IMG/VR virus record: IMGVR_UViG_3300032132_000009
Coordinates: 1 to 58,539 of that record
DNA from: a virus
Lineage: Duplodnaviria; Caudoviricetes
DNA: 58,539 nt
Direction: 5' to 3' (one strand)
Shown here: in pieces, positions 2,252 through 57,842 of the stretch
Layout: every line of letters starts with the position of its first letter
Numbering within the stretch: position 1 is the stretch's first letter
Made by a program: the position numbers and the translations under genes
The notes under the pieces: generated by a model
What the model was told of the DNA's origin: nothing
Databases searched by the model: none
Seen by the model: the letters and a program-made list of their open reading frames with translations, nothing else

Positions 2252-3123
2252 TAAAAACCCTCATCTGGTGACTCGCTTGCTTCGGCAGCATTAAATCTGT
2301 CAGCTACCGTGGATGTTCGAACACTTTGCCCTAACTGATCGTCCGCATACATTTCTTTGATTGTTTTAAACGTCAAAGTTGCTGACAGCATCCCTACGTT
2401 GTATGCACCGATCCAACCCAATCTATTTGTAACTTTATCCCAATTCTTGAATACCCACTCAATCATTGCCATCGCTAAGTTTTCATCATTGTGGCAATAC
2501 CCAAAAAATCTATTTATCATTCCCATTTCTTTCGGAAATGACTTCTTGCCCGTTTTATTGTCTACTGACATGGGGTATTCAGTTTCAAACACTTGCAAAT
2601 GTAATTCCTGTGCTCGTGATAGTATCCTGACTCCCGGCACTTTTGAATTTTTCTTTTTTCGTACCAGTGCAAGCGCTTGCATTCGTACCGAAGGTGCTAA
2701 TTTTGTCACAGCCTGTACTGCTCGTTTTTTACGCCGCTGCTCTGCAATCGCCCGAAGTTTGTCTGCGCTGCTTAACTTTGTAGCAGGGGTTATCGGCAAC
2801 TTGGGTAATTGTACACGTTTACTCGCCATCCAGCAAGGTTTTTTTAACTTAATTTCCCCCAATAGCCAATATCCGTTTTTGTTGCCTACCCACTTCAACT
2901 GCATTAACTTCTTTAGCAGCACTTTAATTTCTTCAACGCCAAGATTCATATCGGTGGCAAGCATTTCAATAGTAAGATTCGAAATCAATGTGCCATCATT
3001 TCGAAATGTCTTAACCGGATCTTCTGTACACGATAAAGAATTGTACGCCAATTTACAGTAAACATACCAAACATCAGGTGTAACTTGTGGATCTTCGTTC
3101 AACCGCAAAACCTCGATATCCAT
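2251..3123 (-). CDS. Putative replication initiator / DNA-binding protein
   Basis: N-terminal wHTH-like segment (TIEMLATDMNLGVEEIKVLLKKLMQLKWV), basic linker, position directly upstream of DnaC-like and DnaB genes. Confidence 0.5.
   Translation of the reverse strand: MDIEVLRLNEDPQVTPDVWYVYCKLAYNSLSCTEDPVKTFRNDGTLISNLTIEMLATDMNLGVEEIKVLLKKLMQLKWVGNKNGYWLLGEIKLKKPCWMASKRVQLPKLPITPATKLSSADKLRAIAEQRRKKRAVQAVTKLAPSVRMQALALVRKKKNSKVPGVRILSRAQELHLQVFETEYPMSVDNKTGKKSFPKEMGMINRFFGYCHNDENLAMAMIEWVFKNWDKVTNRLGWIGAYNVGMLSATLTFKTIKEMYADDQLGQSVRTSTVADRFNAAEASESPDEGF
2667..2682. repeat. Dispersed palindrome copy 1 (intragenic)
   Basis: GTGCAAGCGCTTGCAT; encodes MQALAL. Confidence 0.9.
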
Positions 3124-3142
3124 AAATAGTGCATCTCCATTT

Positions 3143-3158
3143 GTGCAAGTGCTTGCAT
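3143..3158. repeat. Dispersed palindrome copy 2 (intergenic, central TG variant)
   Basis: GTGCAAGTGCTTGCAT, about 20 bp upstream of the initiator-like start. Confidence 0.85.
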
Positions 3159-3354
3159 GTCTAAAAGAAATAAATCTAGGTTTGGCTCCTTTGGCTCAAG
3201 TGATACAAATGTAATGTCATACAATGCTTTTGTCTAGCTCACTAAAAACACTCATTCGCTACGCTCATTCGCGTTTTCTTACGCTCGCAGCCGATGTCCG
3301 TTCGCTGCGGCTCACAGCCGCAGCTCTGCGTACATCGACTCCCCCTCCGGGGGA

Positions 3355-3383
3355 ATTATACCAAATACCCAAAAATAGGTCAA
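3355..3383 (-). promoter_or_regulatory. Sigma70-type promoter for the replication genes
   Basis: Minus strand reads TTGACC-17 nt-TATAAT with an extended -10 TG. Confidence 0.7.
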
Positions 3384-3445
3384 CTCTTAATTTTCAAGTC
3401 TCTTTGGATTTTAATTTGCTTCGTCCAACCCCTCCGTAAATACAA

Positions 3446-3476
3446 AGACGGAACTTGGAAATTCCAAGTTCCGTCT
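3446..3476. repeat. Perfect inverted repeat (15-bp arms, 1-nt spacer)
   Basis: AGACGGAACTTGGAA-A-TTCCAAGTTCCGTCT in the intergenic region upstream of the replication module. Confidence 0.9.
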
Positions 3477-3681
3477 CTGATTGGAGTCGGTTTTCGCTGC
3501 AGTTACCAGCGTATCAGTTTGGAAAACCAGCACAGAGGTGGCCGGGCAATTCAGCCAAAGAACAATCTTAACGCAGCCTCGAACCATAGCGGCATAGTCG
3601 ATAATCTTGTAACTTCGTTTCTGCTAAATCGGAAGAACTGACACCCACTTCCTATCCCCGTCCGACAACGACTCAAACGTA

Positions 3682-3697
3682 GTGCAAGTGCTTGCAC
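3682..3697. repeat. Dispersed palindrome copy 3 (overlaps TAG stop, central TG variant)
   Basis: GTGCAAGTGCTTGCAC. Confidence 0.85.
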
Positions 3698-5142
3698 TAT
3701 ATCAAATTTACAAGATTAAATCCAGGAACTTTGTCCGACTCCTCAATCCCCGGATCATCTGTAAAATGAACTTGTGGATCAAACTCAGTACGAATCATGT
3801 CATCCTCATACTCACGATACAGTATTTTATCATATCCATGCTTACCCCACAATGCCGGATTCATGTGAATACCCGTTTTTCCGATGTACTCACTCCTGTT
3901 AACTACAGGTGCTAATCTACGCCAACCTCGATAATCCATAGTTAACATTGTCACACCATCTTGACCTGTAGGTGGCCCCGATACATATCGTGTCCTCCAC
4001 TTATTAAAATCGGCTTGCAGCGGATAATCAGTTATGTCACTGGACACTTCAACATTATCGCTCCACTCTTTAAATCGTTTAAGGATAGCCTTATGCGGTC
4101 TTCCTCCGTACAGACCAAACAGGAATTGTTCTTCATACTTATAAATCAAAGGGGAGATATCATCCCAGCACTGCTTAGACATCGAGTAACCCCACCAGTT
4201 TGACATTGTAGCTCGTACATAATTAAGGTAGCGCTCTCGTCCCAAATTTGAAAGTTCACACCATTCCCAACCTTGCACAGCTCCTACATCTCCATACCCA
4301 CATCGATCTGCCCATTCCCAAATATTTTCACACAACTGGATATACTGAGGACTAGGCACTAAATCATCTTCAAACACGTATACTCGATCAAATCCAACGT
4401 TATCGAACAGTTGACGCCTCGCATCAATTATGTTTCTACCACATCCATAATGTACAGGGCGCTGCACAATAGCACCCCGAGGAAACGTCTTCTTGAACTC
4501 CAACACTTGGTCATCAATTTTGTAATGTTCATGTTCTGCATCGTAGGGTTTATCAATAAAAAGAACAGTAGGCCAGCTAGTGACTGATTTACCATCAACT
4601 TTATTTTTTGCAAGCGCTTGCACAACTTTTTTAAAATAATCTGGTCGATTGCACGCAATCAATGCGATTGCAGGAAGGTGTGTGTACATTTTAAGATTGG
4701 GTCGATCATCATGCAAATTGAAATAAGGCAAATGGAACCTCGCGCCCACATCTTGGTCGTAGTGTACTGATGGTTTTTTTGGTACGATATTGCCCTTTGC
4801 TATTGCTTTTTTCGGACTAGACAGCTCTTTAAGCATGGAATGAAATTGAGGACACTTTAGTTGGAATGACCCCACACCTTTTATTCGACATCTTCCCAAA
4901 AATACACCTGTGGGTTTCAACTCCAAACGTGCCCACAAGAAGTCATCGTTAAACAGTGATAACGTCACAAGATCCGACGTTTGGTTGTAATTCAAATCCC
5001 AGTCTAACTCCGTATTTAGAATTTGCACCGTATTCGCAAACTCAATTTGAGTAGAGCACCCCGAACCTTCCCACAACGCACCACGTACTATTTTATCCAA
5101 TGTTGTTGTAATAGTTGCAATATCCATCTCAATCTCCATCAT
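3697..5142 (-). CDS. GT-A fold glycosyltransferase resembling GT13 (GnT-I-like), with an unknown N-terminal domain
   Basis: IALIACNRPDY, VFEDDL (DxD-type), WWGY, GQD and PVVNRSEYIGKTG resemble GnT-I-like motifs. Confidence 0.7.
   Translation of the reverse strand: MMEIEMDIATITTTLDKIVRGALWEGSGCSTQIEFANTVQILNTELDWDLNYNQTSDLVTLSLFNDDFLWARLELKPTGVFLGRCRIKGVGSFQLKCPQFHSMLKELSSPKKAIAKGNIVPKKPSVHYDQDVGARFHLPYFNLHDDRPNLKMYTHLPAIALIACNRPDYFKKVVQALAKNKVDGKSVTSWPTVLFIDKPYDAEHEHYKIDDQVLEFKKTFPRGAIVQRPVHYGCGRNIIDARRQLFDNVGFDRVYVFEDDLVPSPQYIQLCENIWEWADRCGYGDVGAVQGWEWCELSNLGRERYLNYVRATMSNWWGYSMSKQCWDDISPLIYKYEEQFLFGLYGGRPHKAILKRFKEWSDNVEVSSDITDYPLQADFNKWRTRYVSGPPTGQDGVTMLTMDYRGWRRLAPVVNRSEYIGKTGIHMNPALWGKHGYDKILYREYEDDMIRTEFDPQVHFTDDPGIEESDKVPGFNLVNLI
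4608..4623. repeat. Dispersed palindrome copy 4 (intragenic)
   Basis: TTGCAAGCGCTTGCAC; encodes VQALAK. Confidence 0.9.
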
Positions 5143-7324: not shown

Positions 7325-7340
7325 ATGCAAGCGCTTGCAC
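7325..7340. repeat. Dispersed palindrome copy 5 (overlaps TAG stop)
   Basis: ATGCAAGCGCTTGCAC. Confidence 0.9.
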
Positions 7341-7972: not shown

Positions 7973-7979
7973 GTGATCC

Positions 7980-8534: not shown

Positions 8535-8536
8535 AT

Positions 8537-9427: not shown

Positions 9428-9428
9428 G

Positions 9429-10409
9429 TCACCGCCCCTGTGCAAGCGCTTGCATTTGAGCAGCTACCATGTGTTCCACCATAGATTGAAAACTCACTTC
9501 AGGCTTCCATCCAAATGTAAATCGTGCTTTCTCTGCATCCCCGCATAGATGAGTAACGTCGTTAGCTCTCACAAACTCTTCAGATGTTTGCACATATTTA
9601 GTATAGTCTAAATCCAAGTACCCAAATGCGATTTCCAGTAACTCTTCAATGGAATGCTCGATGCCAGTTGCTACGACATAAGAATCCGGTTTATCTTGTT
9701 GCATCATCTGCCACATCGCGTTTACATAGTCACCCGCATACCCCCAGTCTCGTGTTGATTCTATGTTACCTAGAATTAACGTGTCTTGACGGTTAGCTTT
9801 GATTTTAGCGGCTGCACTACATATTTTTTGAGTAACAAACCCGCTACCTCGACGAGGGCTTTCATGATTGAACAAAATGCCACGACAGACAAATAAATCA
9901 AACGCTTGACTGTAGGTTTCCGCAACGTTATGCGCAAACACTTTAGCGCAGGCGTAGGGGCTACATGGTGCAAGTGACGTGTCTTCATCTTGTATTGCCG
10001 TTTCCGCATTACCAAACATCTCACTGGATGATGCTTGGTACACTCTCACTTGGTTGCCTGTTCTATTTTGATACTGTAACGCTGCATGAAAAACTGAAGC
10101 CGCCCCCAGACCTGTAACATTATAAGTATATGTAGGATGTTTGAATGACAAACCTACGTGACTTTGGGCTGCTAAATTGTAAATTTCATCCGGCGCAACA
10201 GTATCTATCACATACTGAATTCCCACAGGATCAGTTAAATCCATGTAATGCATGAATGCATTGTTTTCAGACGAATAACTCAGTTCTCCTGTATTTGGCT
10301 TATTCATGGTAGTAGTACCATGAACGATGTAACCTTTACTTTTTAACAACTTGGACAAGTACCAACCATCTTGTCCCGTTACTCCTGTAATCAATGCCAC
10401 GCTATGCAT
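9429..10409 (-). CDS. gmd: GDP-mannose 4,6-dehydratase
   Basis: ALITGVTGQDGWYL, YNLAAQSHV, YQASSSEMFG, SPYACAK, ILFNHESPRRG..FVTQKI and RDWGYA. Confidence 0.95.
   Translation of the reverse strand: MHSVALITGVTGQDGWYLSKLLKSKGYIVHGTTTMNKPNTGELSYSSENNAFMHYMDLTDPVGIQYVIDTVAPDEIYNLAAQSHVGLSFKHPTYTYNVTGLGAASVFHAALQYQNRTGNQVRVYQASSSEMFGNAETAIQDEDTSLAPCSPYACAKVFAHNVAETYSQAFDLFVCRGILFNHESPRRGSGFVTQKICSAAAKIKANRQDTLILGNIESTRDWGYAGDYVNAMWQMMQQDKPDSYVVATGIEHSIEELLEIAFGYLDLDYTKYVQTSEEFVRANDVTHLCGDAEKARFTFGWKPEVSFQSMVEHMVAAQMQALAQGR
9440..9455. repeat. Dispersed palindrome copy 6 (3' end of gmd)
   Basis: GTGCAAGCGCTTGCAT; encodes MQALAQ. Confidence 0.9.
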
Positions 10410-11591: not shown

Positions 11592-11607
11592 GTGCAAGCG
11601 CTTGCAC
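11592..11607. repeat. Dispersed palindrome copy 7 (intergenic)
   Basis: Perfect GTGCAAGCGCTTGCAC between a stop and the next RBS. Confidence 0.92.
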
Positions 11608-12172: not shown

Positions 12173-12182
12173 ACTGAATTTG

Positions 12183-14859: not shown

Positions 14860-15489
14860 TTACTTCTCCATCTTTATCAAATCTTTCTGAGTATCAACAT
14901 CCAATACATCGTCAACATCCATAAAATATGTCTCAGAATTGTATAAATTAGTGTTCAACTTTACTAAAGCACTGGGTAAAATAATTGATATGTAATGTGA
15001 AATCTCAAAACACTTTCGATAGTCTTGTCGTCTCGAAAAATCATGCTTAATAACTTGTACCCCTTTACCAGCCCCAACATCAAACATCATCAAGTACGGA
15101 CTTTGCTTAACTTGCTTTTTACACAAAAGACTACTAAGTTGATTGTGTTGAAACAGGTTGACTGCCCGCTCCACATCTCTCCATTCGCGTTGAGGATACG
15201 TCAAATAAAGCATCAAAACAGGCTCGTCATCCAACTGGATTTTGGAACAAAACTCCTCCATCATATCTTTCGTGGTCGCTGTATCTGCAGCGGACGCCGA
15301 TGATCTGGATACGGATTTAAAATTTTGTGCAAGCGCTTGCATTTGGATTACTTGGTCATCCGTAAAAACATGCACTAAACTTCGATACTTTTTAGGTATA
15401 CTATCAGCAGTGTACTTAAACAACTTCCTATTTTTAAACGGCATTCCTTTTGAATTTCTTCTAGCAGGAATTAGTATTTTCATAATCAT
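14860..15489 (-). CDS. Acylneuraminate (NeuA/PseF-like) cytidylyltransferase
   Basis: ILIPARRNSKGMPFKN, TDD, LYLTYPQR and DVDTQKDL. Confidence 0.85.
   Translation of the reverse strand: MIMKILIPARRNSKGMPFKNRKLFKYTADSIPKKYRSLVHVFTDDQVIQMQALAQNFKSVSRSSASAADTATTKDMMEEFCSKIQLDDEPVLMLYLTYPQREWRDVERAVNLFQHNQLSSLLCKKQVKQSPYLMMFDVGAGKGVQVIKHDFSRRQDYRKCFEISHYISIILPSALVKLNTNLYNSETYFMDVDDVLDVDTQKDLIKMEK
15327..15342. repeat. Dispersed palindrome copy 8 (in NeuA-like gene)
   Basis: GTGCAAGCGCTTGCAT; encodes MQALAQ. Confidence 0.9.
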
Positions 15490-20556: not shown

Positions 20557-20572
20557 GTGCAAGCGCTTGCAC
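20557..20572. repeat. Dispersed palindrome copy 10 (intergenic)
   Basis: Perfect 16-mer. Confidence 0.92.
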
Positions 20573-25242: not shown

Positions 25243-25608
25243 CTAGCTATTTTTCATAGTGTCCGGAATATACAGTTTATCCAACGACCCTGGCGCGTCA
25301 TTTGCACTGTTCGCCGCAGTCACTGTATGTCGTTTGGGCTTCAATGAGTTGAAAAAAGTGTCTACGTCTTCGGGCTTGCCACCATGCTGTGCAAGCGCTT
25401 GCACGTTGTATGCTCGCACTGCTTCTACGTAATGCCGCAATCGAATCTGGTAAACTAACTCCTCCAACTTACAATACGGTTGGTCAAGGATTTGAGTCTC
25501 TGACCAACCGTATTCATTTGCAAGCATATCGACAATGATACCAACGGAGTCTCCGGGATCTATGTCGCTGTGGGAGTCACTGGATTGCTCAGTTTGAGAA
25601 AAAGCCGT
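25243..25608 (-). CDS. Tail assembly chaperone C-terminal extension (gpT-like), reached by -1 frameshift
   Basis: The -1 frame relative to 25560..25931 is open from 25608 through the tracked ORF 25243..25527 (LANEYGWSETQIL). Confidence 0.7.
   Translation of the reverse strand, partial: TAFSQTEQSSDSHSDIDPGDSVGIIVDMLANEYGWSETQILDQPYCKLEELVYQIRLRHYVEAVRAYNVQALAQHGGKPEDVDTFFNSLKPKRHTVTAANSANDAPGSLDKLYIPDTMKNS
25389..25404. repeat. Dispersed palindrome copy 11 (in chaperone extension)
   Basis: Perfect; encodes VQALAQ. Confidence 0.92.
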
Positions 25609-26639: not shown

Positions 26640-26655
26640 GTGCAAGTGCTTGCAC
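26640..26655. repeat. Dispersed palindrome copy 12 (intergenic, central TG variant)
   Basis: GTGCAAGTGCTTGCAC after the tail tube stop. Confidence 0.85.
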
Positions 26656-28562: not shown

Positions 28563-28578
28563 GTGCAAGCGCTTGCAC
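28563..28578. repeat. Dispersed palindrome copy 13 (intergenic)
   Basis: Perfect 16-mer between a stop and an RBS. Confidence 0.92.
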
Positions 28579-32757: not shown

Positions 32758-32773
32758 GTGCAAGCGCTTGCAC
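32758..32773. repeat. Dispersed palindrome copy 14 (abuts TAA stop)
   Basis: Perfect 16-mer. Confidence 0.92.
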
Positions 32774-37446: not shown

Positions 37447-37477
37447 TTTAACCTCAAAAAACAAAAAATTAAGTTAG

Positions 37478-37551: not shown

Positions 37552-37567
37552 GTGCAAGCGCTTGCAC
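37552..37567. repeat. Dispersed palindrome copy 16 (between MCP stop and terminator)
   Basis: Perfect; extends to an 18-bp palindrome. Confidence 0.92.
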
Positions 37568-40064: not shown

Positions 40065-40099
40065 GAATCGATATCCTCCTTATTAACAAATGTGGACGA

Positions 40100-41899: not shown

Positions 41900-41915
41900 G
41901 TGCAAGCGCTTGCAC
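41900..41915. repeat. Dispersed palindrome copy 18 (terL-portal gap)
   Basis: Perfect 16-mer. Confidence 0.92.
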
Positions 41916-44233: not shown

Positions 44234-44784
44234 CCCTTACACAAAGAAAGAAACTCGGCTCGTACTTCAGGTTTACTGAACACACCCGTAAGTTTAGACG
44301 TTACCATACTTCCATGTGATTTGACGCCCCTAAACTTCATACAGCTATGCTCGCCACTCATCTGTACGCCCACTCCACGACACCCTTCAATTGAAGTATG
44401 AAGACACTCTGCAATTTCATCAGTCAGACGCTCTTGCACTTGCAAGCGTCGTGCAAGCGCTTGCACCGCTCGCGGAATTTTACTTAGGCCCACTATTCGA
44501 CGATGTGGGATATATGCTACGTGTACTGTACCCCAAAACGGAAGCATGTGATGTTCACATAAACTTATGAACGGTACGTCCCTAACGACAATCATTTCGT
44601 CGCAATCAGAGTAAAATTGCTTACTCAAATAATTTTTCGGATTTTCGTCGTAGCCCGAAAGGAATTCACGATATGCTTTGACGACTCGTTGAGGTGTTTC
44701 TTGTAGCCCGTCCCGCTCTGCATTTTCTTCCAGAGTAGAAAGAAATTTTTTTAACGCCTCTCCCAGTTGTATATCTACCGGCAC
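44230..44784 (-). CDS. folE: GTP cyclohydrolase I
   Basis: GLQETPQRV, SLCEHHMLPF, VGLSKIPR, RRLQVQERLT and HSCMKFRGV. GTG at 44784 is the likely start (ORF track 44859). Confidence 0.95.
   Translation of the reverse strand: MPVDIQLGEALKKFLSTLEENAERDGLQETPQRVVKAYREFLSGYDENPKNYLSKQFYSDCDEMIVVRDVPFISLCEHHMLPFWGTVHVAYIPHRRIVGLSKIPRAVQALARRLQVQERLTDEIAECLHTSIEGCRGVGVQMSGEHSCMKFRGVKSHGSMVTSKLTGVFSKPEVRAEFLSLCKG
44451..44466. repeat. Dispersed palindrome copy 19 (in folE)
   Basis: Perfect; encodes VQALAR. Confidence 0.92.
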
Positions 44785-45834: not shown

Positions 45835-45861
45835 TATACTTCCTTTGCAATTAATGTCAAG

Positions 45862-46530
45862 TTATTTATCGTCCATATCCGCAAACGCAAATGCTTCAAT
45901 ACGCTCTTGGCACGCTCCGCACTTACCGCAAGCCTCGTCTAAGCCCACATAGCAAGTCCACGTTTTACTATACGGCACTCCCAGACCCTTACCGAACACA
46001 CAGATGTCAGATTTACTAAACGCAATAAAGGGGGCTTCCAGTAAGATGGGATGCCAGTCGCACAGACTGATCGACTGTGCAAGCGCTTGCACAAATCGAG
46101 GACGACAATCAGGATAGATGGAATGATCCCCGGAATGAGCGCCATACATCAACGTGGCCGCTTTTAACGAGATAGCCCATGCGGTAGCCACCGAAAGCAT
46201 AATCATGTTTCGGTTAGGCACTACAGTTGTCTTCATATTTTCATCTGCGTAATGCCCATGAGGTACGTCAACGTTAGGATTAGTCTGTGAGCTGTCACCA
46301 AAAATCTCAGAAATACTGCTGATATCAATTATCTTATGAGGAATACTTACCCCAAACACCTTTTCAGCGTTAGCAACAAAATTTTTAGCATACTCAAGTT
46401 CCTTGCTATGCCTCTGCCCATAATCCACTGAAACACAAGCTACAGACTTGCCAAGTTTAAGCCGCCACCACAATAGGGTAGCGGAATCCATGCCTCCCGA
46501 AAAAATAACAACTTCATCAACTTTGGACAT
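45862..46530 (-). CDS. queC: 7-cyano-7-deazaguanine synthase
   Basis: FSGGMDS, DYGQRH..E, VPNRN, YPDCR and TWTCY...CGKCGAC.ER. Confidence 0.96.
   Translation of the reverse strand: MSKVDEVVIFSGGMDSATLLWWRLKLGKSVACVSVDYGQRHSKELEYAKNFVANAEKVFGVSIPHKIIDISSISEIFGDSSQTNPNVDVPHGHYADENMKTTVVPNRNMIMLSVATAWAISLKAATLMYGAHSGDHSIYPDCRPRFVQALAQSISLCDWHPILLEAPFIAFSKSDICVFGKGLGVPYSKTWTCYVGLDEACGKCGACQERIEAFAFADMDDK
46077..46092. repeat. Dispersed palindrome copy 20 (in queC)
   Basis: Perfect; encodes VQALAQ. Confidence 0.92.
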
Positions 46531-47161: not shown

Positions 47162-47538
47162 ATCTGCCTCTGTACCACTGCACCTGCTGTACCATCCTCA
47201 GTGACTTCACACGTATCAAGATGAAACTGCTTTAATAGCCACATAGCTAAGGCCGCACACGACGAATTTCCCAGATCAGGCAACCCCGACGTAGTTTCCC
47301 GGAAATTATCGATAAACCATTCCCTAATTTGATGTCTAATAGCTTGAGGCCACGCCTCGCGCTCTGAATGCTTAACTGATCTCATACATTTGATATGAAA
47401 TGTATGCATGTGAGGAAATCTCTCCTGAATACACCCAGGCGGGGCGTCCTCCGCACAATGCTGTGCCTCCACTGTAATATTACAAACGGCTGCAATCACT
47501 GGAGGGTATTCGTCACTATTTGCATGGAAATTGTTCAT
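47158..47538 (-). CDS. Second, divergent QueD-like (T-fold) protein
   Basis: PHMHTFHI...H.ERE...SC..LA...EVTEDG.AGA matches the short phage QueD-like family, with SCE changed to SCA. Confidence 0.5.
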   Translation of the reverse strand: MNNFHANSDEYPPVIAAVCNITVEAQHCAEDAPPGCIQERFPHMHTFHIKCMRSVKHSEREAWPQAIRHQIREWFIDNFRETTSGLPDLGNSSCAALAMWLLKQFHLDTCEVTEDGTAGAVVQRQI

Positions 47539-48281
47539 ATTAAATCTTCACTTCTATCTATAAGTTTGTTTAACTGCACGCGCCATCTAGCTTCTGACCA
47601 ATCTTGTCGGCGCATGTGCTCCACCACTTCCACCCATAAATCTTGAAGACCCCCTTTCTTCATACGTGATTTAAGATGAATTTGTTTACCCGTGTACCCC
47701 GCATACTGCCCAAACCGCCCTGGTGCTGTGCCCCATGACGATGAATCCACAGAATCGAATGGCACTGTTTCAACTGCTCGCCTACTCGCCATTCCAAATC
47801 CATGAAACTTAACAGGTTCCTTTTTCCAACTTCGCGCAAACACAGCTTTCAACCACTTGGGACGAGTCTTAATCTTTGATCCCAATCCCACCTTTTCAGA
47901 GTTCTCGCAGCACCAATCAAGGTACTCTAATGGTTCCTGATGATGATACACTGGCATCGCATTGATACCCGCCGCCCACATTATCTCCGCGTTCCGTTTG
48001 GAAATTTTCCACGACGTTAAATCGTCTAAGGACACTATTTCACACGCATCCACACTCCGACACGCATTGATGTATTCGTAGACACTAATGGTCTTTCCCG
48101 AATTGTACACGGAAAATGCACCCGAATCTAACATCCACTTTTCGATATTGAACTTCTTACGCTCACGCATAAAAGTATCCAATAGCGGATATGCTACTAA
48201 TAAATTAACTGGACGATCATTGAGATGCCGACGTAATGTCTCTGATCCCGCAGTGGTGTACGCAAGGTAAACTGTACTCAT
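47535..48281 (-). CDS. dpdA: DpdA-like DNA guanine transglycosylase (TGT fold)
   Basis: MLDSGAFS, SLDD, MPVYH, VGLG, FHGFG and PFDSVDSSSW; adjacent to queCDE/folE. ATG at 48281. Confidence 0.8.
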   Translation of the reverse strand: MSTVYLAYTTAGSETLRRHLNDRPVNLLVAYPLLDTFMRERKKFNIEKWMLDSGAFSVYNSGKTISVYEYINACRSVDACEIVSLDDLTSWKISKRNAEIMWAAGINAMPVYHHQEPLEYLDWCCENSEKVGLGSKIKTRPKWLKAVFARSWKKEPVKFHGFGMASRRAVETVPFDSVDSSSWGTAPGRFGQYAGYTGKQIHLKSRMKKGGLQDLWVEVVEHMRRQDWSEARWRVQLNKLIDRSEDLI

Positions 48282-48290
48282 GGTGTATCC

Positions 48291-48306
48291 GTGCAAGCAC
48301 TTGCAC
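48291..48306. repeat. Dispersed palindrome copy 21 (overlaps ParB-like TAG stop, central CA variant)
   Basis: GTGCAAGCACTTGCAC. Confidence 0.85.
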
Positions 48307-48974
48307 TAATCCTCGTCTGCAAACGAACTAATGTACTTAGAACATACAATAGTCAAAATTTCAGCAGGTGTTTGTCCCGCATCTTCCGCAACGGCTCTAA
48401 AGTTAGCCAAGGCTTCATCCACAATGGTTTTCTGTGGTACGGAAAACTGTACCACCATACCTCGGGCTTCCAAATCACTGCCCGGCGTGGAGGGTTCGTC
48501 TGTATCGAATTCTTCATCCTCAAACCCAGCCCCCATATCCATCTCAGAGTCCAGCAAAGGCGTAAGCTCATGCTCCGGAAACCCCGTAAGATGCAATAAC
48601 TCTTCATCCGTATCTTGCAACTCTCGTAAAGTCACAATTAGTTTCTCATAATCAAACTCTGAGTTACGTGGCGTTTTATTCAGCGTGATTCCTAACGCTT
48701 TTAGCTGGTCTGGCGTACCCCGCACCGGCCAGACCATAACTTTCGTCCAACCATTTTTCTTCATTATGCGAAGGCGACCATTACCTCCAATCACAGTATT
48801 GGTATCCGCGTCTACTATGAGAGTTTCAAGCTGATTAAACTTGTTAAGACTAGCTTCAGTGGCGTCCAAATCTTGGTCCGAATGCATGTTAACATTGTCC
48901 GGATCTTCCATTAAATCGTCAACATTCATCTCTTTAATATCAAGGCGTTCAAAACCTTCCAACATGTCAACCAT
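48306..48974 (-). CDS. ParB/Srx N-terminal-domain protein with acidic linker and small C-terminal domain
   Basis: VDDLMEDPDNVNMH, SLNKF, LIVD...VIGGNGRL (GxxR) and LN; start 48974 or 48965. Confidence 0.8.
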   Translation of the reverse strand: MVDMLEGFERLDIKEMNVDDLMEDPDNVNMHSDQDLDATEASLNKFNQLETLIVDADTNTVIGGNGRLRIMKKNGWTKVMVWPVRGTPDQLKALGITLNKTPRNSEFDYEKLIVTLRELQDTDEELLHLTGFPEHELTPLLDSEMDMGAGFEDEEFDTDEPSTPGSDLEARGMVVQFSVPQKTIVDEALANFRAVAEDAGQTPAEILTIVCSKYISSFADED

Positions 48975-49419
48975 CGAGTGTCCCTTTGTATTCAAGCGTA
49001 GACTCAAGTAAAATATTTACACATGCTTCTAAGCATTTGGATTGTACACTGGAATTCTCATCAAACAGAGTAGCAATTGCATCAAACCCACAACCTTGTG
49101 CGAATTTTACCAACCGCAAAACCTCAAGCCACTCCACGTATTGCTCACACGTTTGAAGGTATACAGATGGCAACCTAAATAGTGCCTTTGCAAGTGGAGC
49201 GTGCCCAGGAATACATATTACAACTTCGTGTACTATGGAAAGACCCGTAGTCACCCAATCCGCAAAATCTACAACAGTGTCACCTCGCCTCCAAAAATGT
49301 GGAGGGTCCGCAGGCGCACCGTAGTATTCTGGGCCTAAATGCCAAAATGAGCTGTCTTCTTTCAAAGCCTGCTTCACTACACTCTTGCACACCTTACCGC
49401 TGCCAAGTATCAACTTCAT
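48967..49419 (-). CDS. Hypothetical protein
   Basis: 150-aa ORF coupled to its neighbours. Confidence 0.55.
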   Translation of the reverse strand: MKLILGSGKVCKSVVKQALKEDSSFWHLGPEYYGAPADPPHFWRRGDTVVDFADWVTTGLSIVHEVVICIPGHAPLAKALFRLPSVYLQTCEQYVEWLEVLRLVKFAQGCGFDAIATLFDENSSVQSKCLEACVNILLESTLEYKGTLDG

Positions 49420-50109: not shown

Positions 50110-50811
50110 CTACGAACCGTGTGTAGCATGTGCAAGCGCTTGCACGCTTTTCACAATGTTAGGGACGCAATATGTGTATACGGCTCGTTTCAAGTCGTCT
50201 AACGTACCCGTATTATCTACCACGCAATTTGGTTTGTCAATGTCCAATAGGCCATCCAACGCTTTTTTTTCAGTTCGCCCCGAGTCTCCTATTACTTTTA
50301 CGTAAAATGGTTCAAACTTCGAAGTTAACGCATCCCACTCTTCCGGCAATCGCATATCAGTGATCACGGGAACATGTACACTAATCCCCACATCCATACG
50401 TCCTTCAGTAGTTTTGGTATACAGTTTGGACACATCACTCTCTATTTTTCTCATAGCTAGTCTTACGCCAGCTTCAGGATGAATGCCCGTAAAAAACTTA
50501 CCTAAGTCCACCCATAAGTCCACGACAGACTCATAGCCCAACTTAGGTAACTTAAATTTACGTAACGCGGGGTTTCGCTCATACGAGTCTGATGAATGCA
50601 CCCCTGCAAATCCATACAAACGATGAGCAATATCTTTAACATACGTAGAAAATTTGTATCCTTTACAAGTAATATGCACATCGCCGTAGTTAGGATGCAT
50701 TTTGAAACAAGCTACCACCTGTTTACAAATAGCATCTTTACCCGCACGAGACTCATTAGAATAAATCACAACGGGATAAACAATCGCACCTCGTTTAAGT
50801 CCCTTCAACAT
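50110..50811 (-). CDS. Deoxynucleoside monophosphate kinase
   Basis: P-loop SRAGKD, FSTYVKD, VITDMRLPEE and DNTGTLDDL. Confidence 0.8.
   Translation of the reverse strand: MLKGLKRGAIVYPVVIYSNESRAGKDAICKQVVACFKMHPNYGDVHITCKGYKFSTYVKDIAHRLYGFAGVHSSDSYERNPALRKFKLPKLGYESVVDLWVDLGKFFTGIHPEAGVRLAMRKIESDVSKLYTKTTEGRMDVGISVHVPVITDMRLPEEWDALTSKFEPFYVKVIGDSGRTEKKALDGLLDIDKPNCVVDNTGTLDDLKRAVYTYCVPNIVKSVQALAHATHGS
50130..50145. repeat. Dispersed palindrome copy 22 (3' end of dNMP kinase gene)
   Basis: Perfect; encodes VQALAH. Confidence 0.92.
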
Positions 50812-52753: not shown

Positions 52754-53328
52754 AATTCGTACAACTCGAACTCTTCATCCACTTCAGCGTCGTTTACCTC
52801 CTGTTCCCGTAAAGCATGAAACACCTGTAAAGTTTTTTGGCAATCGTCTAATGCCCGATGACCTGGGGGAGTCAAGTGCAAGCGCTTGCACACTGCCGAT
52901 AGGCTCCACGGCGAATTTTGTTCAGCATACGTTTCTTGCCATACCGTAGCTAAGTCTAAATGTCGGTTTGAATGCCGAAAATCGCACCCTGTATATCCAC
53001 ATTGATATCGTAGTAACACTGGATCAATCGCAGACCAACTGGCTATCGTCGTCTTTCTTGCGAAATCCGCGAATTCGTCGTACACTTCGGTCCACTTGGG
53101 AGCTATTTCTAATTCACTTTTATCGATTTGTGTAATTGCTTCTATTTTCGGAGTGTAGTCTTCCCAATGCAACGGGTACACTAAACTGGAATACTTTCCT
53201 GCAGGTTCCCCATTTTTAGTTACCCTTAGCGCGCCTAACTCCAAAATACTTGGCATCCCATGCCTAGAATACGCAACGGGTTGGTCGCCATACTCTAAGT
53301 CAAAAATAATAATATCCGTTTTGAACAT
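52750..53328 (-). CDS. DEDDh 3'-5' exonuclease
   Basis: IIFDLE, ILELGA, D and HRALDD motifs. Confidence 0.88.
   Translation of the reverse strand: MFKTDIIIFDLEYGDQPVAYSRHGMPSILELGALRVTKNGEPAGKYSSLVYPLHWEDYTPKIEAITQIDKSELEIAPKWTEVYDEFADFARKTTIASWSAIDPVLLRYQCGYTGCDFRHSNRHLDLATVWQETYAEQNSPWSLSAVCKRLHLTPPGHRALDDCQKTLQVFHALREQEVNDAEVDEEFELYEF
52876..52891. repeat. Dispersed palindrome copy 23 (in exonuclease gene)
   Basis: Perfect; encodes CKRLH. Confidence 0.92.
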
Positions 53329-55481: not shown

Positions 55482-55493
55482 ATAAACCTCACT

Positions 55494-55509
55494 ATGCAAG
55501 CGCTTGCAC
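55494..55509. repeat. Dispersed palindrome copy 24 (overlaps TAG stop)
   Basis: ATGCAAGCGCTTGCAC. Confidence 0.9.
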
Positions 55510-55939: not shown

Positions 55940-56532
55940 ACTTTGAAGACATCCATTCTACGAGTACGCTTAATCGCCTCTACGTCATCGTAATCCACTG
56001 TACGCACCACACTACTTACTTGTTCAAACCTCTTAGCTATGTTGGAGCAGTCCATTCGTATTAAATCAGAAATCACAAAATACTTAGGACGATAACGCAA
56101 ATAATATTCAAGCAACGGCACATGACTTTCTGCAGCTACGATGAAATCTAAAATAGCAGAAAACACAATAACATCCACTCGGCCAATTTCGGGTGGATTT
56201 TCTACCCTGCCGGTTTCAAAATATTTTGAGTTGTCGCCTTTAAACTTCTCAATAGCTCTATCAATGGCTACTTTGGAACCATCAATACCGATATAAATGC
56301 CTTGAGTTAGTTCAGCTAATGCTCCCTCCCCGCAGCCCACATCAAAACAACTTTGAGTGCCTACGAAATCCGCTATCGGTTGTAGGAATGTATCTTTGAA
56401 CTCCTTACTGTGTAAGTATGCGTAGTAATTGTCAGCATAGGTTTTATTAAGATGGTCGGGTGTAATATTTTTCCGCAATTTTATCAAGGAGGCCATTGGG
56501 TATCCTTTCATCGTATCGAAATCGACACACAC
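55936..56532 (-). CDS. Class I SAM-dependent methyltransferase
   Basis: FDVGCGEG, YIGIDGS..AI and DVIVFS. True start probably 56496 or later. Confidence 0.85.
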   Translation of the reverse strand: MCVDFDTMKGYPMASLIKLRKNITPDHLNKTYADNYYAYLHSKEFKDTFLQPIADFVGTQSCFDVGCGEGALAELTQGIYIGIDGSKVAIDRAIEKFKGDNSKYFETGRVENPPEIGRVDVIVFSAILDFIVAAESHVPLLEYYLRYRPKYFVISDLIRMDCSNIAKRFEQVSSVVRTVDYDDVEAIKRTRRMDVFKV

Positions 56533-57040
56533 GCGATTTACTCACATGATCATGGCGCGGCGTCTTCCAGTCTCCATACTCTCGTTTCAAATATACTTCA
56601 ATGTCTTTTGGGATATTCCAACGTGTTCCAAACCACTGAATTTCCATGTATTCTTCCAGTAACTTACGTGGATGCACCAGTGAATACTCAGTAAGATTCG
56701 AGCTACAAAAGCGAACATCTTTCCACAGCAAATACGCCGCCAAGTCCGCCTTGATCCCATATTTGAATGCTTTAATTATCCTAATAGCATTGAATGGTTT
56801 GTTAACTGTGTGAACTTCAAATCCTGCTTCAATCAACCGACACGCTATCAACCCACCGTATTGCACCATGTCCTCGCCAAGAAAACTGATGTCAACGTCG
56901 AGTTCAGTAGGTGTGAATCCCCCATCCCTATATGCACCCAGAGCGCTGCCTTGGCAAAGAAAGCACGGAAACGGTTTAAGCACTTCATGCAAATCTTTAA
57001 CCAACTTTGCACCGTCTTCAAAATTCATCGGTTTAGTCAC
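56447..57040 (-). CDS. LicD-family nucleotidyl/phosphotransferase
   Basis: FLCQGSALGAYRDGGF.P..LDVDI and P.DIEVYL..EYGDWKTP. Confidence 0.85.
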   Translation of the reverse strand: MTKPMNFEDGAKLVKDLHEVLKPFPCFLCQGSALGAYRDGGFTPTELDVDISFLGEDMVQYGGLIACRLIEAGFEVHTVNKPFNAIRIIKAFKYGIKADLAAYLLWKDVRFCSSNLTEYSLVHPRKLLEEYMEIQWFGTRWNIPKDIEVYLKREYGDWKTPRHDHVSKSRVCRFRYDERIPNGLLDKIAEKYYTRPS

Positions 57041-57458
57041 AGTGTAGCTCCCGGTAAATTTTTTGTTTTATCTCTGAAGTGGACACTGAAGTTGTGTAGC
57101 CTATCTTTTCAACATCACAAAGATTATCTTTGCACCATCGCTCTGCGTCTCGATGTCGAATAGCCGATCCCCACTCAGACCCGACAGCCAAAATTTCAGG
57201 CCGCACGAACTCCAGTGGACTCAGAAACTCAAACTTCGAATACACTACACATTGTTTAACGAATGGCAAATAGGAAAGCATTTCCAAACGCTCTGCTAAA
57301 TTCATCGTCGGGGCCGAACCTTTATCCTCCAGAACAACTTCATCCGTTGGAACGCCGACATATAAATCACCGAACGCCGCCGCCCGAGAAAGGAACCTAG
57401 CATGACCATAGTGAAGTAAATCCCAACATCCAGGAGCAAACACTTTTGACGTGTCCAT
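57033..57458 (-). CDS. TagD/RfaE-like cytidylyltransferase (glycerol-3-phosphate cytidylyltransferase-like)
   Basis: GCWDLLHYGH (HxGH), LYVGVPTD, ER...L, VGSEW and YTTSVSTSEIK. ATG at 57458; the ORF-track extension is only the palindrome. Confidence 0.88.
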   Translation of the reverse strand: MDTSKVFAPGCWDLLHYGHARFLSRAAAFGDLYVGVPTDEVVLEDKGSAPTMNLAERLEMLSYLPFVKQCVVYSKFEFLSPLEFVRPEILAVGSEWGSAIRHRDAERWCKDNLCDVEKIGYTTSVSTSEIKQKIYRELHCD

Positions 57459-57482
57459 CACATGTCCTTTTACTTCAAACCA

Positions 57483-57498
57483 GTGCAAGCGCTTGCAC
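57483..57498. repeat. Dispersed palindrome copy 25 (upstream of TagD-like gene)
   Basis: Perfect 16-mer. Confidence 0.92.
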
Positions 57499-57714
57499 AA
57501 AATTTTTCAGCAAACACTCACCAGCAGACCAACAACCCAAAAAATTCTCCAGAGAGGCAACAAATGACTCCTAACATGCCATATGGTTGTTGCCGAATTT
57601 TTTTGATAATAAAGGAAAGTGTGGGGGTAATGTGGGGAGCATGTGGGGGATGCTTAGGAGGAATGATGGGGTGTTATGGGGTGTTATCACTGTATTAGTT
57701 ATGGGGGATGGGTA

Positions 57715-57742
57715 ATTATAACATGTTATAACATATTGTAAA
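57715..57742 (-). promoter_or_regulatory. Possible promoter overlapping an AT-rich palindrome
   Basis: TTTACA-16 nt-TATAAT on the minus strand; TTATAACATGTTATAA palindrome at 57716-57731. Confidence 0.4.
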
Positions 57743-57826
57743 TATTAAAATAAGTGTGGGAATCATTTTTATGCTGTTATAAACAAATTGTGTAGATATA
57801 AAGTGTGGGGGGCATGTGGGGAGCAT

Positions 57827-57842
57827 GTGCAAGCGCTTGCAC
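57827..57842. repeat. Dispersed palindrome copy 26 (inside the G-rich repeat region)
   Basis: Perfect; extends to the 18-bp TGTGCAAGCGCTTGCACA. Confidence 0.92.

Follow-up and report, generated by a model that had tools for sequence, protein, structure and literature searches.

Introduction

Stoperators of the Cluster A mycobacteriophages are asymmetric, oriented with transcription and found in temperate phages that encode a repressor. Another type of dispersed site occurs in Cluster O (Corndog and its relatives), where more than 30 copies of a 17-bp dyad-symmetric repeat lie in a siphovirus genome of ~70 kb; in the portion of that report cited here, the Corndog repeats are placed 14 between ORFs, 10 near ORF 5′ ends and 10 within ORFs, and the authors predicted a dimeric binder with a role other than transcription initiation (PMC4351075). 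For the bacterial repressor CytR, the consensus TGCAA-N2-3-TTGCA, or inverted octamers with a 2-bp spacer, has been given, together with sites of variable spacing and direct-repeat layouts, and the portion of the source cited here places CytR orthologues only in Enterobacterales and Vibrionales (PMC3454398). Inverted octamers with a 2-bp spacer set TGCAA and TTGCA 4 bp apart. Phage ParB-like proteins lacking a DNA-binding domain are described, in the excerpt cited, as partners of DNA-modifying enzymes (PMC13229309).

Results

The window (the whole stretch of 58,539 nucleotides that was analyzed) represents 58% of the genome of an uncultured siphovirus, a marine tailed phage, and all its genes are on the minus strand. 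A first-pass annotation had reported 26 copies of a 16-bp palindrome dispersed along it. Upon scanning the window with the 14-mer core at up to two mismatches, 26 sites were obtained; every listed start position was correct and the counts of 15 perfect 16-mers and 22 exact cores were reproduced, the other four sites having a single central mismatch. The sites are the following.

2667..2682, motif copy GTGCAAGCGCTTGCAT, within the 290-aa ORF 2251-3123 (minus)
3143..3158, motif copy, centre GTGC, 19 nt upstream of where ORF 2251-3123 (minus) starts
3682..3697, motif copy, centre GTGC, abutting the stop of ORF 3697-5142 (minus)
4608..4623, motif copy within ORF 3697-5142 (minus); site at a comparable relative position in G006 (0.36 vs 0.40)
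7325..7340, motif copy abutting the stop of ORF 7340-8104 (minus)
9440..9455, motif copy where the epimerase gene (9429-10409) meets the glycosyltransferase gene (8537-9445)
11592..11607, exact 16-mer lying after the stop of 11609-12226 (minus) and before the ribosome-binding site and start of 10556-11578 (minus)
15327..15342, motif copy within ORF 14860-15489 (minus), frame 0
17308..17323, exact 16-mer within ORF 16100-17479 (minus), frame 0
20557..20572, exact 16-mer in the gap between 20576-20965 (minus) and 19414-20544 (minus); same-junction site in G006
25389..25404, exact 16-mer within ORF 25243-25527 (minus), frame 0
26640..26655, motif copy, centre GTGC, in an intergenic gap; same-junction site in G003
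28563..28578, exact 16-mer 2 nt past the stop of 28581-29267 (minus); same-junction site in G003 and G007
32758..32773, exact 16-mer immediately past the stop of 32774-32977 (minus)
36568..36583, motif copy within ORF 36310-37464 (minus); same relative position in G003 (0.77), near in G007 (0.71)
37552..37567, exact 16-mer in the gap that follows the capsid-like gene 37600-38595 (minus); one-mismatch copy at the same junction in G007
39389..39404, exact 16-mer within ORF 38646-40064 (minus); same relative position in G007 (0.47)
41900..41915, exact 16-mer at the TerL-portal junction; same-junction site in G003, G006 and G007
44451..44466, exact 16-mer within the GTP cyclohydrolase I gene 44230-44859 (minus); matching position in G007 (0.64 vs 0.65)
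46077..46092, exact 16-mer within queC 45862-46530 (minus); matching position in G007 (0.67 vs 0.66)
48291..48306, motif copy, centre GCAC, between the ParB-like and DpdA-like genes
50130..50145, exact 16-mer close to the 3′ end of ORF 50110-50811 (minus); same relative position in G007 (0.96)
52876..52891, exact 16-mer within the exonuclease gene 52750-53328 (minus)
55494..55509, motif copy filling the gap between 55509-55721 (minus) and 55217-55492 (minus)
57483..57498, exact 16-mer at the 5′ end of ORF 57033-57500 (minus)
57827..57842, exact 16-mer in a repeat-rich, probably non-coding region

In contigs of runs X1, X3 and X4 position 48299 is G, which turns the copy at 48291..48306 into a perfect palindrome.

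The array is real and non-random. No exact 16-mer was present in any of 100 dinucleotide shuffles, as the claim of non-chance occurrence anticipated, and the shuffle mean for the 14-mer core was 0.18 matches vs 26 in the window. Gaps between neighboring sites range from 344 to 4832 bp (0.3-4.8 kb had been estimated) and are more even than random: their coefficient of variation is 0.52, vs 0.97 under random placement (P 0.00035) and 0.96 when 12 junction and 14 in-ORF sites were held fixed in number (P 0.0004). Gene junctions, which comprise 12.9% of positions, hold 12 of the 26 sites (P 3e-5). Site flanks are unrelated, in agreement with the statement that the array is not a CRISPR, a MITE or a tandem repeat. 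An assembly artefact was ruled out, the stretch being present in four runs from four studies and the motif in many independent IMG/VR records. Neither was any of the bacterial genomes examined dense in the motif, as a host-wide repeat would be; among the matches listed, at least 119 bacterial genome stretches contain the exact 16-mer, one copy each, two of them coming from a single MAG contig.

The array is an inherited trait of a clade of siphoviruses of ~80-105 kb with all genes on one strand. TGCAA-N4-TTGCA arrays are present in at least 17 related IMG/VR records of 37-60% GC (G001-G003, G006-G013, G019, G020, G022 and G035-G037); G025 also has one, with sites less densely placed. Different 16-bp palindromes, built from related half-sites, are found in close relatives; the half-sites drift gradually, hybrid sites being present in G015, G016 and G017. 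Spacing is regular in the six genomes tested and in G031. Clade proteins are encoded by seven of nine multi-site viral loci and are missing from 13 of 15 single-site loci. Two cultured relatives, Vibrio phage KarBoss and Rhodobacter phage RcZahn, have TGCAA-type arrays as well. In KarBoss the motif takes the form of direct repeats; RcZahn has 11 sites per 50 kb vs 0.18 expected. The half-sites of G011 are separated by N3, and four of its sites are clustered in 73-bp tandem units within a non-coding region of ~3 kb.

The variants of the site are strand-symmetric. On the coding strand of G002 the centres are ACGC (11), GCGT (10) and GCGC (7). Outer-position pairs of the sites are G..C (94), A..C (25), G..T (15) and A..T (8), so that in an RNA the closing pair would more often be the mismatch A.C than the wobble G.U; one-base arm variants show no compensating change opposite. 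In-ORF sites of ten genomes fall in frames 0, 1 and 2 in 73, 33 and 20 cases (P 1e-8). Counterparts in G003, G006 or G007, at an identical junction or equally far along the ORF, were found for 11 of the 18 window sites with comparable orthologues; protein identity there is only 30-70%. Sigma-70-like promoters and intrinsic terminators occur at shuffle-level counts and do not coincide with sites. Since variants are strand-symmetric, in-ORF positions are kept and promoters or terminators do not match, the array points to duplex DNA bound by a dimer rather than to an RNA element, and selection, as judged from the sequence comparisons, acts on the site DNA itself. We consider it extremely unlikely that the palindrome works as an RNA or single-stranded DNA hairpin, for instance in mRNA processing or stability or as a signal for lagging-strand priming. 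A transcript could form a 6-bp stem with a 4-nt loop, many copies are immediately upstream of ribosome-binding sites, and Okazaki fragment length resembles the ~2 kb site spacing. Nevertheless, the hairpin is weak (-6.8 to -10.2 kcal/mol, z -0.5 to -2.4), its stem is strictly conserved with covariation absent, and it cannot form from the direct-repeat motif versions in KarBoss and RcZahn.

The location of the sites also bears on a possible role in gene expression. About half of them occupy the interval from a stop codon to the ribosome-binding site that follows, and they are denser at 2667-4608, upstream of replication genes. The motif of RcZahn is asymmetric, with 10 of its 11 copies on the coding strand immediately upstream of ribosome-binding sites, a few bases before GGAG and ATG; in this arrangement it looks closer to a signal for gene expression than to a site for loading. 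These data, and the G011 cluster, would fit expression signals for another small, fast-evolving phage regulator, acting as stoperator-like roadblocks or start-associated elements that time or level downstream genes. We regard this as improbable: half of the sites are deep within ORFs and conserved there, promoters and terminators stand apart from them, symmetric sites, as in most genomes, carry no direction, and neither phmmer nor jackhmmer found a conserved small regulator in 13 genomes.

In some contigs of the source run, flanks of different copies are fused, 41900 (left flank) with 52876 (right flank) and 17308, inverted, with 46077. Such junctions could be produced if a phage nuclease (a ParB-like “nuclease” domain protein or an HNH enzyme) cut, nicked or recombined the sites, leaving regular single-strand interruptions or recombination hot spots; a ParB-like gene adjoins the terminase genes in G003, G013 and G016, and G001 and G003 have multi-copy HNH endonucleases. 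This is very unlikely, however. Library or assembly artefacts at a shared palindrome explain the chimeric contigs equally well, nicks in both palindrome strands would break the genome, and no other sign of cleavage was seen.

The most likely binder is the protein of family phrog_17202, whose gene is outside the window. It is present in all ten array-bearing records that are at least 80% complete (G002, G011, G012, G013, G017, G022, G025, G031, G035 and G036) and absent from both array-less records of the same completeness (G026 and G032); it was not found in G000 or G001, both incomplete. The array of G031 was forecast from the phrog_17202 gene alone, and this genome has 20-21 evenly spaced copies (P 0.0006) of its own palindrome. 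In G002 the gene is directly upstream of two ParB N-domain genes, and in three of seven genomes a site lies within 200 nt upstream of it, vs 4-15% of genes generally. A ParB/Noc-like DNA-binding core is predicted for the protein (residues ~80-225, pLDDT 74-90, in an AF2 model of mean pLDDT 60 built on an alignment of six rows). ParB, Spo0J and Noc DNA-binding domains occupy 13 of the top 15 structural rows (rmsd 2.3-4.8 over 96-123 residues) with Z scores of 7.3-9.2, in a range where helical models frequently reach 7-8 by chance, and the next unrelated row has a Z of 3.6. As a fold match this is modest: Foldseek gave E-values no better than 0.6, Pfam and PDB sequence searches gave no match, and among six genomes the recognition-helix region shows no visible co-variation with the half-site.

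A protein related to ParB is encoded within the window, next to the site at 48291..48306:

48306..49007, minus strand, ParB-like protein (phrog_620, E 2e-30) with a nucleotide-binding N-domain and a short C-terminal domain, no HTH
47535..48296, minus strand, DpdA-like DNA transglycosylase (phrog_887, E 3e-35), directly downstream of the ParB-like gene

With the start supported by homologues, the ParB-like protein has 222 aa; its AF2 model (pLDDT 74.7) matches ParB, Noc and KorB N-domains in Foldseek with E-values down to 7e-6. It may act as a partner of the protein that binds the sites. Proteins with ParB-like N- and C-domains are found in 12 of 13 clade genomes, although their subfamilies do not track the motif, since G000 and G003 share it while their ParB-like proteins are related only at the HMM level. 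Outside the clade, 28 viral loci with relatives of the G001 ParB-methyltransferase lack a TGCAA-type array (0 or 1 site each); a repeated palindrome occurs in only one of these loci, with a different sequence and five copies. The array does not require the DpdA-like gene, as G001, G002 and G003 lack it and still bear arrays.

The main rival reading, which we consider unlikely, takes the sites as perfect operators of a host repressor from the LacI family (CytR/PurR type), one that governs nucleotide metabolism. As it replicates, the phage genome would act as a decoy, titrating the repressor and derepressing nucleoside and purine supply, or the repressor would serve as a metabolic sensor that roadblocks phage transcription. 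The match to known LacI-family operators is strikingly good, and all CytR site forms are found in the clade, most genomes having N4, G011 having N3 and KarBoss having direct repeats. Among the matches listed, 3 of 119 bacterial loci have the exact 16-mer within 300 bp upstream of a LacI-type gene, 8 of 119 contain a LacI HTH signature and 10 of 119 a second TGCAA-N4-TTGCA within 8 kb. The 12-mer core of the G013 and G031 motifs appears in PurR papers and the symmetrised G017 motif in PtxS papers, in the excerpts available, and titration of PurR by a high-copy plasmid is recorded in the excerpt of PMC3266220. No LacI-type HTH scored above the cut-off in the 16 phage records, and Vibrio is the host of 17 of the 21 cultured phages with a phrog_17202 homologue. 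Against this reading, arrays are limited to one phage clade rather than to the phages of one host, the Rhodobacter phage is outside the CytR range, and the same motif is kept over the whole GC range of the carriers. Gradual half-site drift and hybrid sites fit one co-evolving binder, even spacing and co-occurrence with phrog_17202 are unexpected for a sponge, and a strong roadblock every 2 kb would damage the phage.

Discussion

We propose that the 26 copies are double-stranded DNA docking sites, each made of two TGCAA-type half-sites, for a symmetric, dimeric, phage-encoded protein. Selection would maintain about one site per 2 kb, in tiny intergenic gaps if these are available or else within ORFs, where the V/M-Q-A-L-A frame predominates. 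A phrog_17202-type dimer would bind them and, together with the HTH-less, NTPase-fold ParB-like protein (48306-49007), may work as a “split ParB”. After loading at each of the sites, the complex would occupy the adjacent DNA or spread along it, so that evenly spaced loading covers the whole genome, as with Noc or KorB. As ParA and tyrosine integrase were found in none of ten records, segregation, one of the roles suggested in the first-pass annotation, is unlikely, and lysogeny is probably not the purpose either; marking, organising or shielding phage DNA, or global transcription control, would be more probable. Taken as a whole, this explanation of the array is plausible, though somewhat short of an even chance. 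The earlier interpretation is partly supported: strand symmetry, even spacing, clade inheritance and the ParB/Noc-type fold of the co-occurring protein fit its dimeric genome-wide binder, binding itself remaining a prediction.

The system had also been called undescribed. This is only partly so, in view of the very similar, unexplained array of Cluster O, with which, in the portion of the report cited, it shares a dispersed dyad-symmetric repeat with invariant arms, a variable centre and an orientation unrelated to transcription, the lack of integrase and parAB, and the presence of a ParB-like domain gene and glycosyltransferases; the Cluster O repeat has a different sequence (TGTTCGGNNNCCGAACA), and those phages differ in host phylum and in having genes on both strands (PMC4351075). 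That array is an analogue and not an explanation, as its own function and binder are unexplained. Cluster A stoperators resemble the window sites in being ~20-35 dispersed, mostly intergenic sites per genome, away from promoters and served by one phage protein, in part according to the cited portion of PMC4351075; the window sites are, in contrast, symmetric, and integrase was not found. CytR and other LacI-family operators have the identical half-site TGCAA in the same 14-bp frame and tolerate variable spacing and direct repeats, and most phage variants have a central CG; however, in the portion of the source cited natural CytR sites are few and weak and are bound at promoters together with CRP, whereas the phages lack a LacI-type HTH and the array extends to a Rhodobacter phage, beyond the reported CytR range (PMC3454398). 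The closest mechanistic likeness is to ParB-parS, Noc-NBS and KorB-OB, where palindromes for a dimeric HTH domain act as dispersed loading sites with action on flanking DNA; the candidate binder has a predicted ParB/Noc-type DNA-binding fold and the window encodes a ParB N-domain protein. In the phage the two ParB parts would reside on separate proteins, ParA is absent, the phage is apparently lytic, and the density of sites, ~1 per 2 kb genome-wide, is far higher.

Spacing and placement of the palindrome copies

The exact 16-mer GTGCAAGCGCTTGCAC, a palindrome made of the half-sites TGCAA and TTGCA, occurs 15 times in the window and was not found in any of 100 dinucleotide-preserving shuffles. 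Its 14-nt core yields 26 matches, 22 of them exact and four with one central mismatch, against a shuffle mean of 0.18. The first-pass annotation had located 26 copies by eye and described their flanks as unrelated; all 26 start positions proved correct in a motif scan of the window, and comparison of the flanks gave the same picture. Evenness of spacing, which it had proposed to check, was borne out as well: the CV of the gaps is 0.52, compared with 0.97 under random placement (P 0.00035) and with 0.96 in a null that keeps 12 sites at junctions and 14 in ORFs (P 0.0004). As the gaps between copies span 344-4832 bp, the flanks are unrelated and half of the copies lie in ORFs, a CRISPR, a tandem repeat, a MITE or a REP element is ruled out. 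An artefact is also ruled out, since the stretch is present in runs of several studies and the motif in other IMG/VR records. The metagenome runs containing the stretch are labelled marine, seawater or viral.

Gene junctions hold 12 of the 26 sites, this class comprising 12.9% of positions (P 3e-5), and there a site often occupies the entire gap from the stop codon to the next ribosome-binding site. The remaining 14 sites are located deep within ORFs, and 11 of these are in the frame reading V/M-Q-A-L-A; over ten genomes, in-ORF sites are distributed among frames 0, 1 and 2 as 73, 33 and 20 (P 1e-8).

Sigma-70-like promoters and intrinsic terminators remain at shuffle level in the window and do not coincide with the sites; a terminator-like score was obtained for only one of the 26 copies, on the non-coding strand. 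Near-consensus sigma-70-type promoters (11-12 of 12 matches) are located on the coding strand as follows:

45860-45833 (-), sigma-70-type promoter
57742-57715 (-), sigma-70-type promoter
50240-50212 (-), sigma-70-type promoter
40127-40100 (-), sigma-70-type promoter
28534-28506 (-), sigma-70-type promoter

None of them overlaps a motif copy, and the one at 28534 begins 28 nt downstream of a copy. At 57600-58260 lies a region that is rich in repeats and probably non-coding, a possible replication origin or early control region. A G-rich unit of about 30 nt occurs four times in it, its A-rich repeats measure about 34 nt, and several inverted repeats are built around TTGCAACA-type words.

Gene content of the window

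The window is a linear, whole IMG/VR virus record, estimated to be 58% complete. GC skew is negative along its whole length and minus-strand ORFs cover 93% of it. It encodes a large terminase, a portal, a capsid-like protein and a 1414-aa tape measure, as well as DnaB-like and DnaC-like proteins, glycosyltransferases and an epimerase. The search for a close GenBank phage gave no DNA match, and among isolates identity was at most 22% for TerL and 29% for the capsid. Neither a tyrosine integrase nor ParA (PF13614 search) was found in any of ten records, two of them complete, so that segregation and lysogenic silencing are unlikely functions. Further features are:

44230-49007 (-), 7-deazaguanine DNA-modification cassette: GTP cyclohydrolase I, QueD-like, QueC, DUF6884 and DpdA-like transglycosylase, with the ParB-like gene directly upstream of DpdA
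48306-49007 (-), ParB-like protein
43613-44233, TerS, with HTH matches
3697-5142, 7340-11578, 55936-56532 and 57033-57500, sugar-handling genes

The ParB-like gene beside DpdA recalls the bacterial DpdA/DpdB pair. Contigs of two sequencing runs, X3 and X4, which represent relatives about 94% identical, lack queC and the DUF6884 gene at window positions 45865-47180 and have 32 other letters there; the cassette thus varies within the population. The sugar-handling set comprises two glycosyltransferases, a nucleotide-sugar epimerase, a class I methyltransferase and a cytidylyltransferase, together with weak GNT-I-like and sulfotransferase-like matches. These genes may be used to glycosylate the virion or the DNA, as in Cluster O phages.

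The sites very probably act as duplex DNA

The way in which the copies vary speaks against an RNA element. On the coding strand of the related genome G002, the site centre reads ACGC 11 times, its mirror GCGT 10 times and GCGC seven times. At the outermost position pair we counted G..C 94, A..C 25, G..T 15 and A..T 8, A..C exceeding G..T, which means that an RNA mismatch is commoner than a wobble pair. Single arms change without compensation, the predicted RNA hairpin is weak (-6.8 to -10.2 kcal/mol, z -0.5 to -2.4), and the direct-repeat forms present in cultured relatives are unable to fold into a hairpin. Taking into account the weak fold, the lack of covariation, the excess of A.C over G.U and the single terminator-like copy, an intrinsic terminator or structured RNA was rejected; the sites very probably act as duplex DNA, not RNA. 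Very probably, the array is a set of protein-binding sites on that duplex.

Contigs of the source run end or switch exactly at motif copies, at window positions 36584, 39388, 41917, 46074-46075, 48305 and others. Position 41917 is joined to the flank of the copy at 52876, and 46074 to the inverted flank of the copy at 17308. Such joins could stem from recombination at the sites, from breaks there or, the palindrome being shared, from artefacts of the library.

Arrays in related phages

Further array records were obtained by pattern scans of IMG/VR and then by a capsid-alignment search. TGCAA-N4-TTGCA arrays are present in the viral records G001-G003, G006-G013, G019, G020, G022 and G035-G037, and at lower density in G025. 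GC content among the fetched array records ranges from 37 to 60%, and capsid identity to the window goes down to 22-26%. Each of the six genomes tested has a spacing evener than random, with a CV of 0.47-0.60 and, in five of them, a P of at most 0.0024. Near-complete relatives carry 30-49 copies, compared with 26 in the 58% of the genome that the window represents. The site centre differs from record to record: GCGC in the window, GTAC in G006, GCAC in G007, ACGC or GCGT in G002, TCGA and others in G022, CAAG or CTTG in G035 and any two bases in G011, the latter having about 30 further copies with a single central base. Eleven of 18 comparable window sites have a counterpart in G003, G006 or G007, at the same junction or the same relative position in the ORF, examples being the TerL-portal junction (G003, G006 and G007) and queC (0.67 vs 0.66). 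Protein identity at the genes with conserved sites is only 30-70%.

In G011 (locus L281), four motif copies lie in 73-bp tandem units at about 26400-26850, within a non-coding stretch of about 3 kb. Three of the four units hold a second palindrome, of 18 bp (AAAAGTGT-AC-ACACTTTT), and GGAATTTTTGGT-type repeats precede the region. Multi-copy HNH endonuclease genes, probably homing endonucleases, were observed in two records:

G001, 86-541, 39620-40075 and 56186-56629, HNH endonuclease genes
G003, 14164-14676 and 45009-45527, HNH endonuclease genes

A motif-like site overlaps one of the G001 copies near its start.

Several records with capsids 69-71% identical to that of the window have 0-2 TGCAA-type sites and dispersed 16-bp palindromes of their own.

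Dispersed palindromes of other types in related records
Record, palindrome, copies
G013, TTGCAAACGTTTGCAA, 44
G017, GTG[A/C]AACCGGGTTCAC, about 19
G016, GTG[TC/CA]CCCGGGGACAC, about 12-16
G015, TGCACG-NN-CGTGCA (hybrid half-sites included), about 9

The half-sites form a graded series (TGCAA, TGCAC, TGAAA/TGAAC, TGTCC), which suggests that one family of binders has drifted in specificity together with its sites. A search of the shared protein families for specificity-determining columns gave nothing convincing. Other repeated words were seen in viral contigs that encode ParB-like relatives: GTACCA-N5-TGGTAC five times in the 15-kb L404, a 14-16-nt word five times in L271 and CATCGCCGG six times in L272. 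Signature repeats of this dispersed kind may occur more widely.

Homologues of the phrog_17202 protein, the candidate site binder discussed below, were found by tblastn with the G013 sequence in 21 GenBank phages (17 of Vibrio, two of Rhizobium, one of Rhodobacter and one of Aeromonas). Vibrio phage vB_VibS_KarBoss (87 kb) and Rhodobacter phage RcZahn (101.6 kb) both have their genes on one strand in the 50 kb examined. KarBoss contains, per 50 kb, at least 10 copies of TGCAATTAA[G/C]TGCAA, the same half-site as a direct repeat. RcZahn contains 11 distinct TGCAATCANYTGCA sites per 50 kb vs 0.18 expected; the coding strand carries 10 of these, and several immediately precede GGAG and ATG. The terms 'motif', 'palindrom' and 'TGCAA' do not occur in the main text of the RcZahn paper, the supplementary files of which might list repeats. 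A literature search with the motif strings found no phage paper.

Phage or host trait

When 24 viral loci were re-examined, nine had at least two sites and seven of these nine carried clade proteins; 13 of the 15 single-site loci were without them. Among the matches listed, bacterial genomes contain the 16-mer as scattered single copies, a frequency that we estimate to be at chance level. The bacterial MAG G038, the only one among them with two matches to the 16-mer, has three sites in all, each within about 24 kb and none in the rest of its 1.5 Mb. A repeat spread through host genomes is rejected on these scattered single copies among the matches listed and on the confinement of the G038 sites to the island stretch of about 24 kb. 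As far as these matches show, the array is a trait of the phage clade, not of the host.

The G038 sites belong to a low-GC integrative island of a proteobacterial MAG (contig 6, about 380-425 kb; L393-L396), and their flanks are unrelated. The island encodes two integrase-like proteins, a primase, DNA methyltransferases, large helicases, an SbcC-like ATPase and a ParB-methyltransferase that is 51% identical to that of G001.

The sites might instead be decoy operators for host LacI-family repressors of nucleotide metabolism. Judged by its sequence, the window site fits a textbook LacI-family operator, with inverted TGCAA half-sites, a 14-16 bp frame and often a central CG. In PMC3454398, the CytR consensus is given as TGCAA-N2-3-TTGCA, or in the form of inverted octamers separated by a 2-bp spacer, with variable spacing and direct repeats, and orthologues are placed only in Enterobacterales and Vibrionales. 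Among the matches listed, three of 119 bacterial loci have the exact 16-mer at most 300 bp upstream of a LacI-type gene and 10 of 119 have a second TGCAA-N4-TTGCA site nearby; strings from the motifs of G013, G031 and G017 appear in papers on PurR, MalR and PtxS. A decoy array for such repressors is biologically sensible and, if real, would represent a novel way of taking over the host, by means of decoy operators encoded in cis. In 16 phage records searched, no LacI-type HTH passed the family cut-off, and just two weak generic HTH matches turned up. We rank host repressors below a phage-encoded binder because the arrays follow the phage clade rather than the host, occur in a Rhodobacter phage and span 37-60% GC, and because of the gradual drift with hybrid sites, the regular spacing and the co-occurrence with phrog_17202.

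Candidate binding proteins

Regarding a phage-encoded binder, only the capsid, the portal and the ParB-like family are common to all lineages among 13 genomes. The window ParB-like protein consists of a ParB N-domain and a short helical C-domain, and has no HTH (phrog_620, E 2e-30; Foldseek to ParB/Noc/KorB N-domains, E 7e-6). Its homologues come from marine metagenomes, one of them named by Tara; related loci sought with this protein alone were not found. According to PMC13229309, an HTH-less ParB N-domain plus C-domain architecture activates phage DNA-modifying enzymes, and a survey (PMC12704722) describes the ParB-like fold as common in phages and often fused to methyltransferases. As specificity determinant the ParB-like protein is a poor candidate: its subfamilies, phrog_620 and phrog_26387, do not track the motif, and a TGCAA-type array is missing from 28 non-clade viral loci with relatives of the G001 ParB-methyltransferase, one of which has a different palindrome five times.

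Three further possibilities were discarded. A link to 7-deazaguanine is not supported: DpdA is present in G006 and G007 and was not found in G001, G002 (complete) and G003, which keep their arrays; a PF01702 search was insensitive, missing the DpdA-like gene of the window itself. In G013, a small ORF with an HTH and a weak LacI-like match lacks relatives in the other genomes, and the similarity of TerS does not track the motif.

The phrog_17202 protein (330-450 aa, annotated as of unknown function) is encoded at the end of the replication module and gave no Pfam match and no PDB sequence match. Its AF2 model has a confident helical core at residues ~80-225 (pLDDT 74-90). Foldseek ranked ParB, Spo0J and Noc structures first, with weak E values (0.6 or worse). 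VIA-align to the DNA-binding domains of ParB, Spo0J and Noc gave Z 7.3-9.2 and rmsd 2.3-4.8 over 96-123 residues, these proteins filling 13 of the top 15 rows and the next unrelated row having Z 3.6; as helical models can reach such Z by chance, the match is only suggestive. On this modest fold match, the protein may belong to the ParB/Noc family.

The gene was detected in 16 records out of 30. Where completeness is at least 80%, it accompanies the array in all ten records that have one (G002, G011, G012, G013, G017, G022, G025, G031, G035 and G036), and the two that lack the gene (G026 and G032) showed no dispersed palindrome. G031, with the gene and no TGCAA-type site, served as a blind test and carries 20-21 copies of CCGCAAACGTTTGCGG at even spacing (CV 0.51, P 0.0006). 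In G002 the gene is directly upstream of two ParB N-domain genes. A site lies at most 200 nt upstream of the gene in three of seven genomes, vs 4-15% of genes generally. Comparison of the recognition-helix region with the half-site showed no obvious covariation in six phrog_17202 sequences. The gene is not in the window, which covers 58% of the genome; synteny would place it past the DnaB end. We consider phrog_17202 a better candidate than the ParB-like protein.

Proposed mechanism and significance

We propose a model in which an HTH-only, ParB/Noc-like protein would recognize the evenly spaced palindromes throughout the genome, and a separate HTH-less protein of the ParB NTPase fold would load at them and spread. 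Both would coat and mark the DNA of the phage, distinguishing it from that of the host. Such marking might direct post-replicative modification, as 7-deazaguanine through the adjacent DpdA in this phage and as methylation through ParB-methyltransferase fusions in others; alternatively, it might protect the DNA against host defences. From one relative to the next, the specificity for sites would drift as it does among incompatibility groups. The identity of the binder in this model is a tentative proposal, with somewhat less than even chances, and its purpose is more doubtful. That a lytic clade uses a split ParB, HTH-only plus HTH-less, to coat and self-mark its DNA is, taken as a whole, rather unlikely.

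Arrays of a single palindrome across a whole genome had been described in a few phages (Cluster O) and never explained. In a large, varied clade of siphoviruses from the sea and fresh water they now prove to be a trait that is conserved and evolves, and since this clade has cultured members (RcZahn and several Vibrio phages), the question is testable at the bench. If the split-ParB model is true, site-loaded DNA coating of the ParB/Noc/KorB type would extend to lytic viruses, and the model could explain how DNA-modifying enzymes partnered by HTH-less ParB find phage DNA.

Comparison with known systems

The nearest described case is that of Cluster O mycobacteriophages, which likewise have many dispersed, dyad-symmetric copies with no promoter link, a likeness that is descriptive only. 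According to PMC4351075, their 17-bp dyad repeat occurs more than 30 times, is divided between gaps and ORFs in a similar way and has no orientation; these phages have no integrase or parAB and do have a ParB-like gene, and the function of the repeat is given as unknown. Later papers, as far as surveyed, add nothing on its function. Cluster A stoperators are asymmetric, oriented and found in temperate phages with a repressor, whereas the window sites are perfect palindromes and no tyrosine integrase was found in the ten records; the oriented RcZahn variant resembles stoperators more closely. As in ParB, Noc and KorB arrays, the window has palindromes of about 16 bp in several copies and a ParB N-domain, here on a separate protein; lacking ParA, the system is not of the ParABS partition family. 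The array looks like a CytR operator; in its mode of action it would come closest to the site arrays of Noc or KorB.
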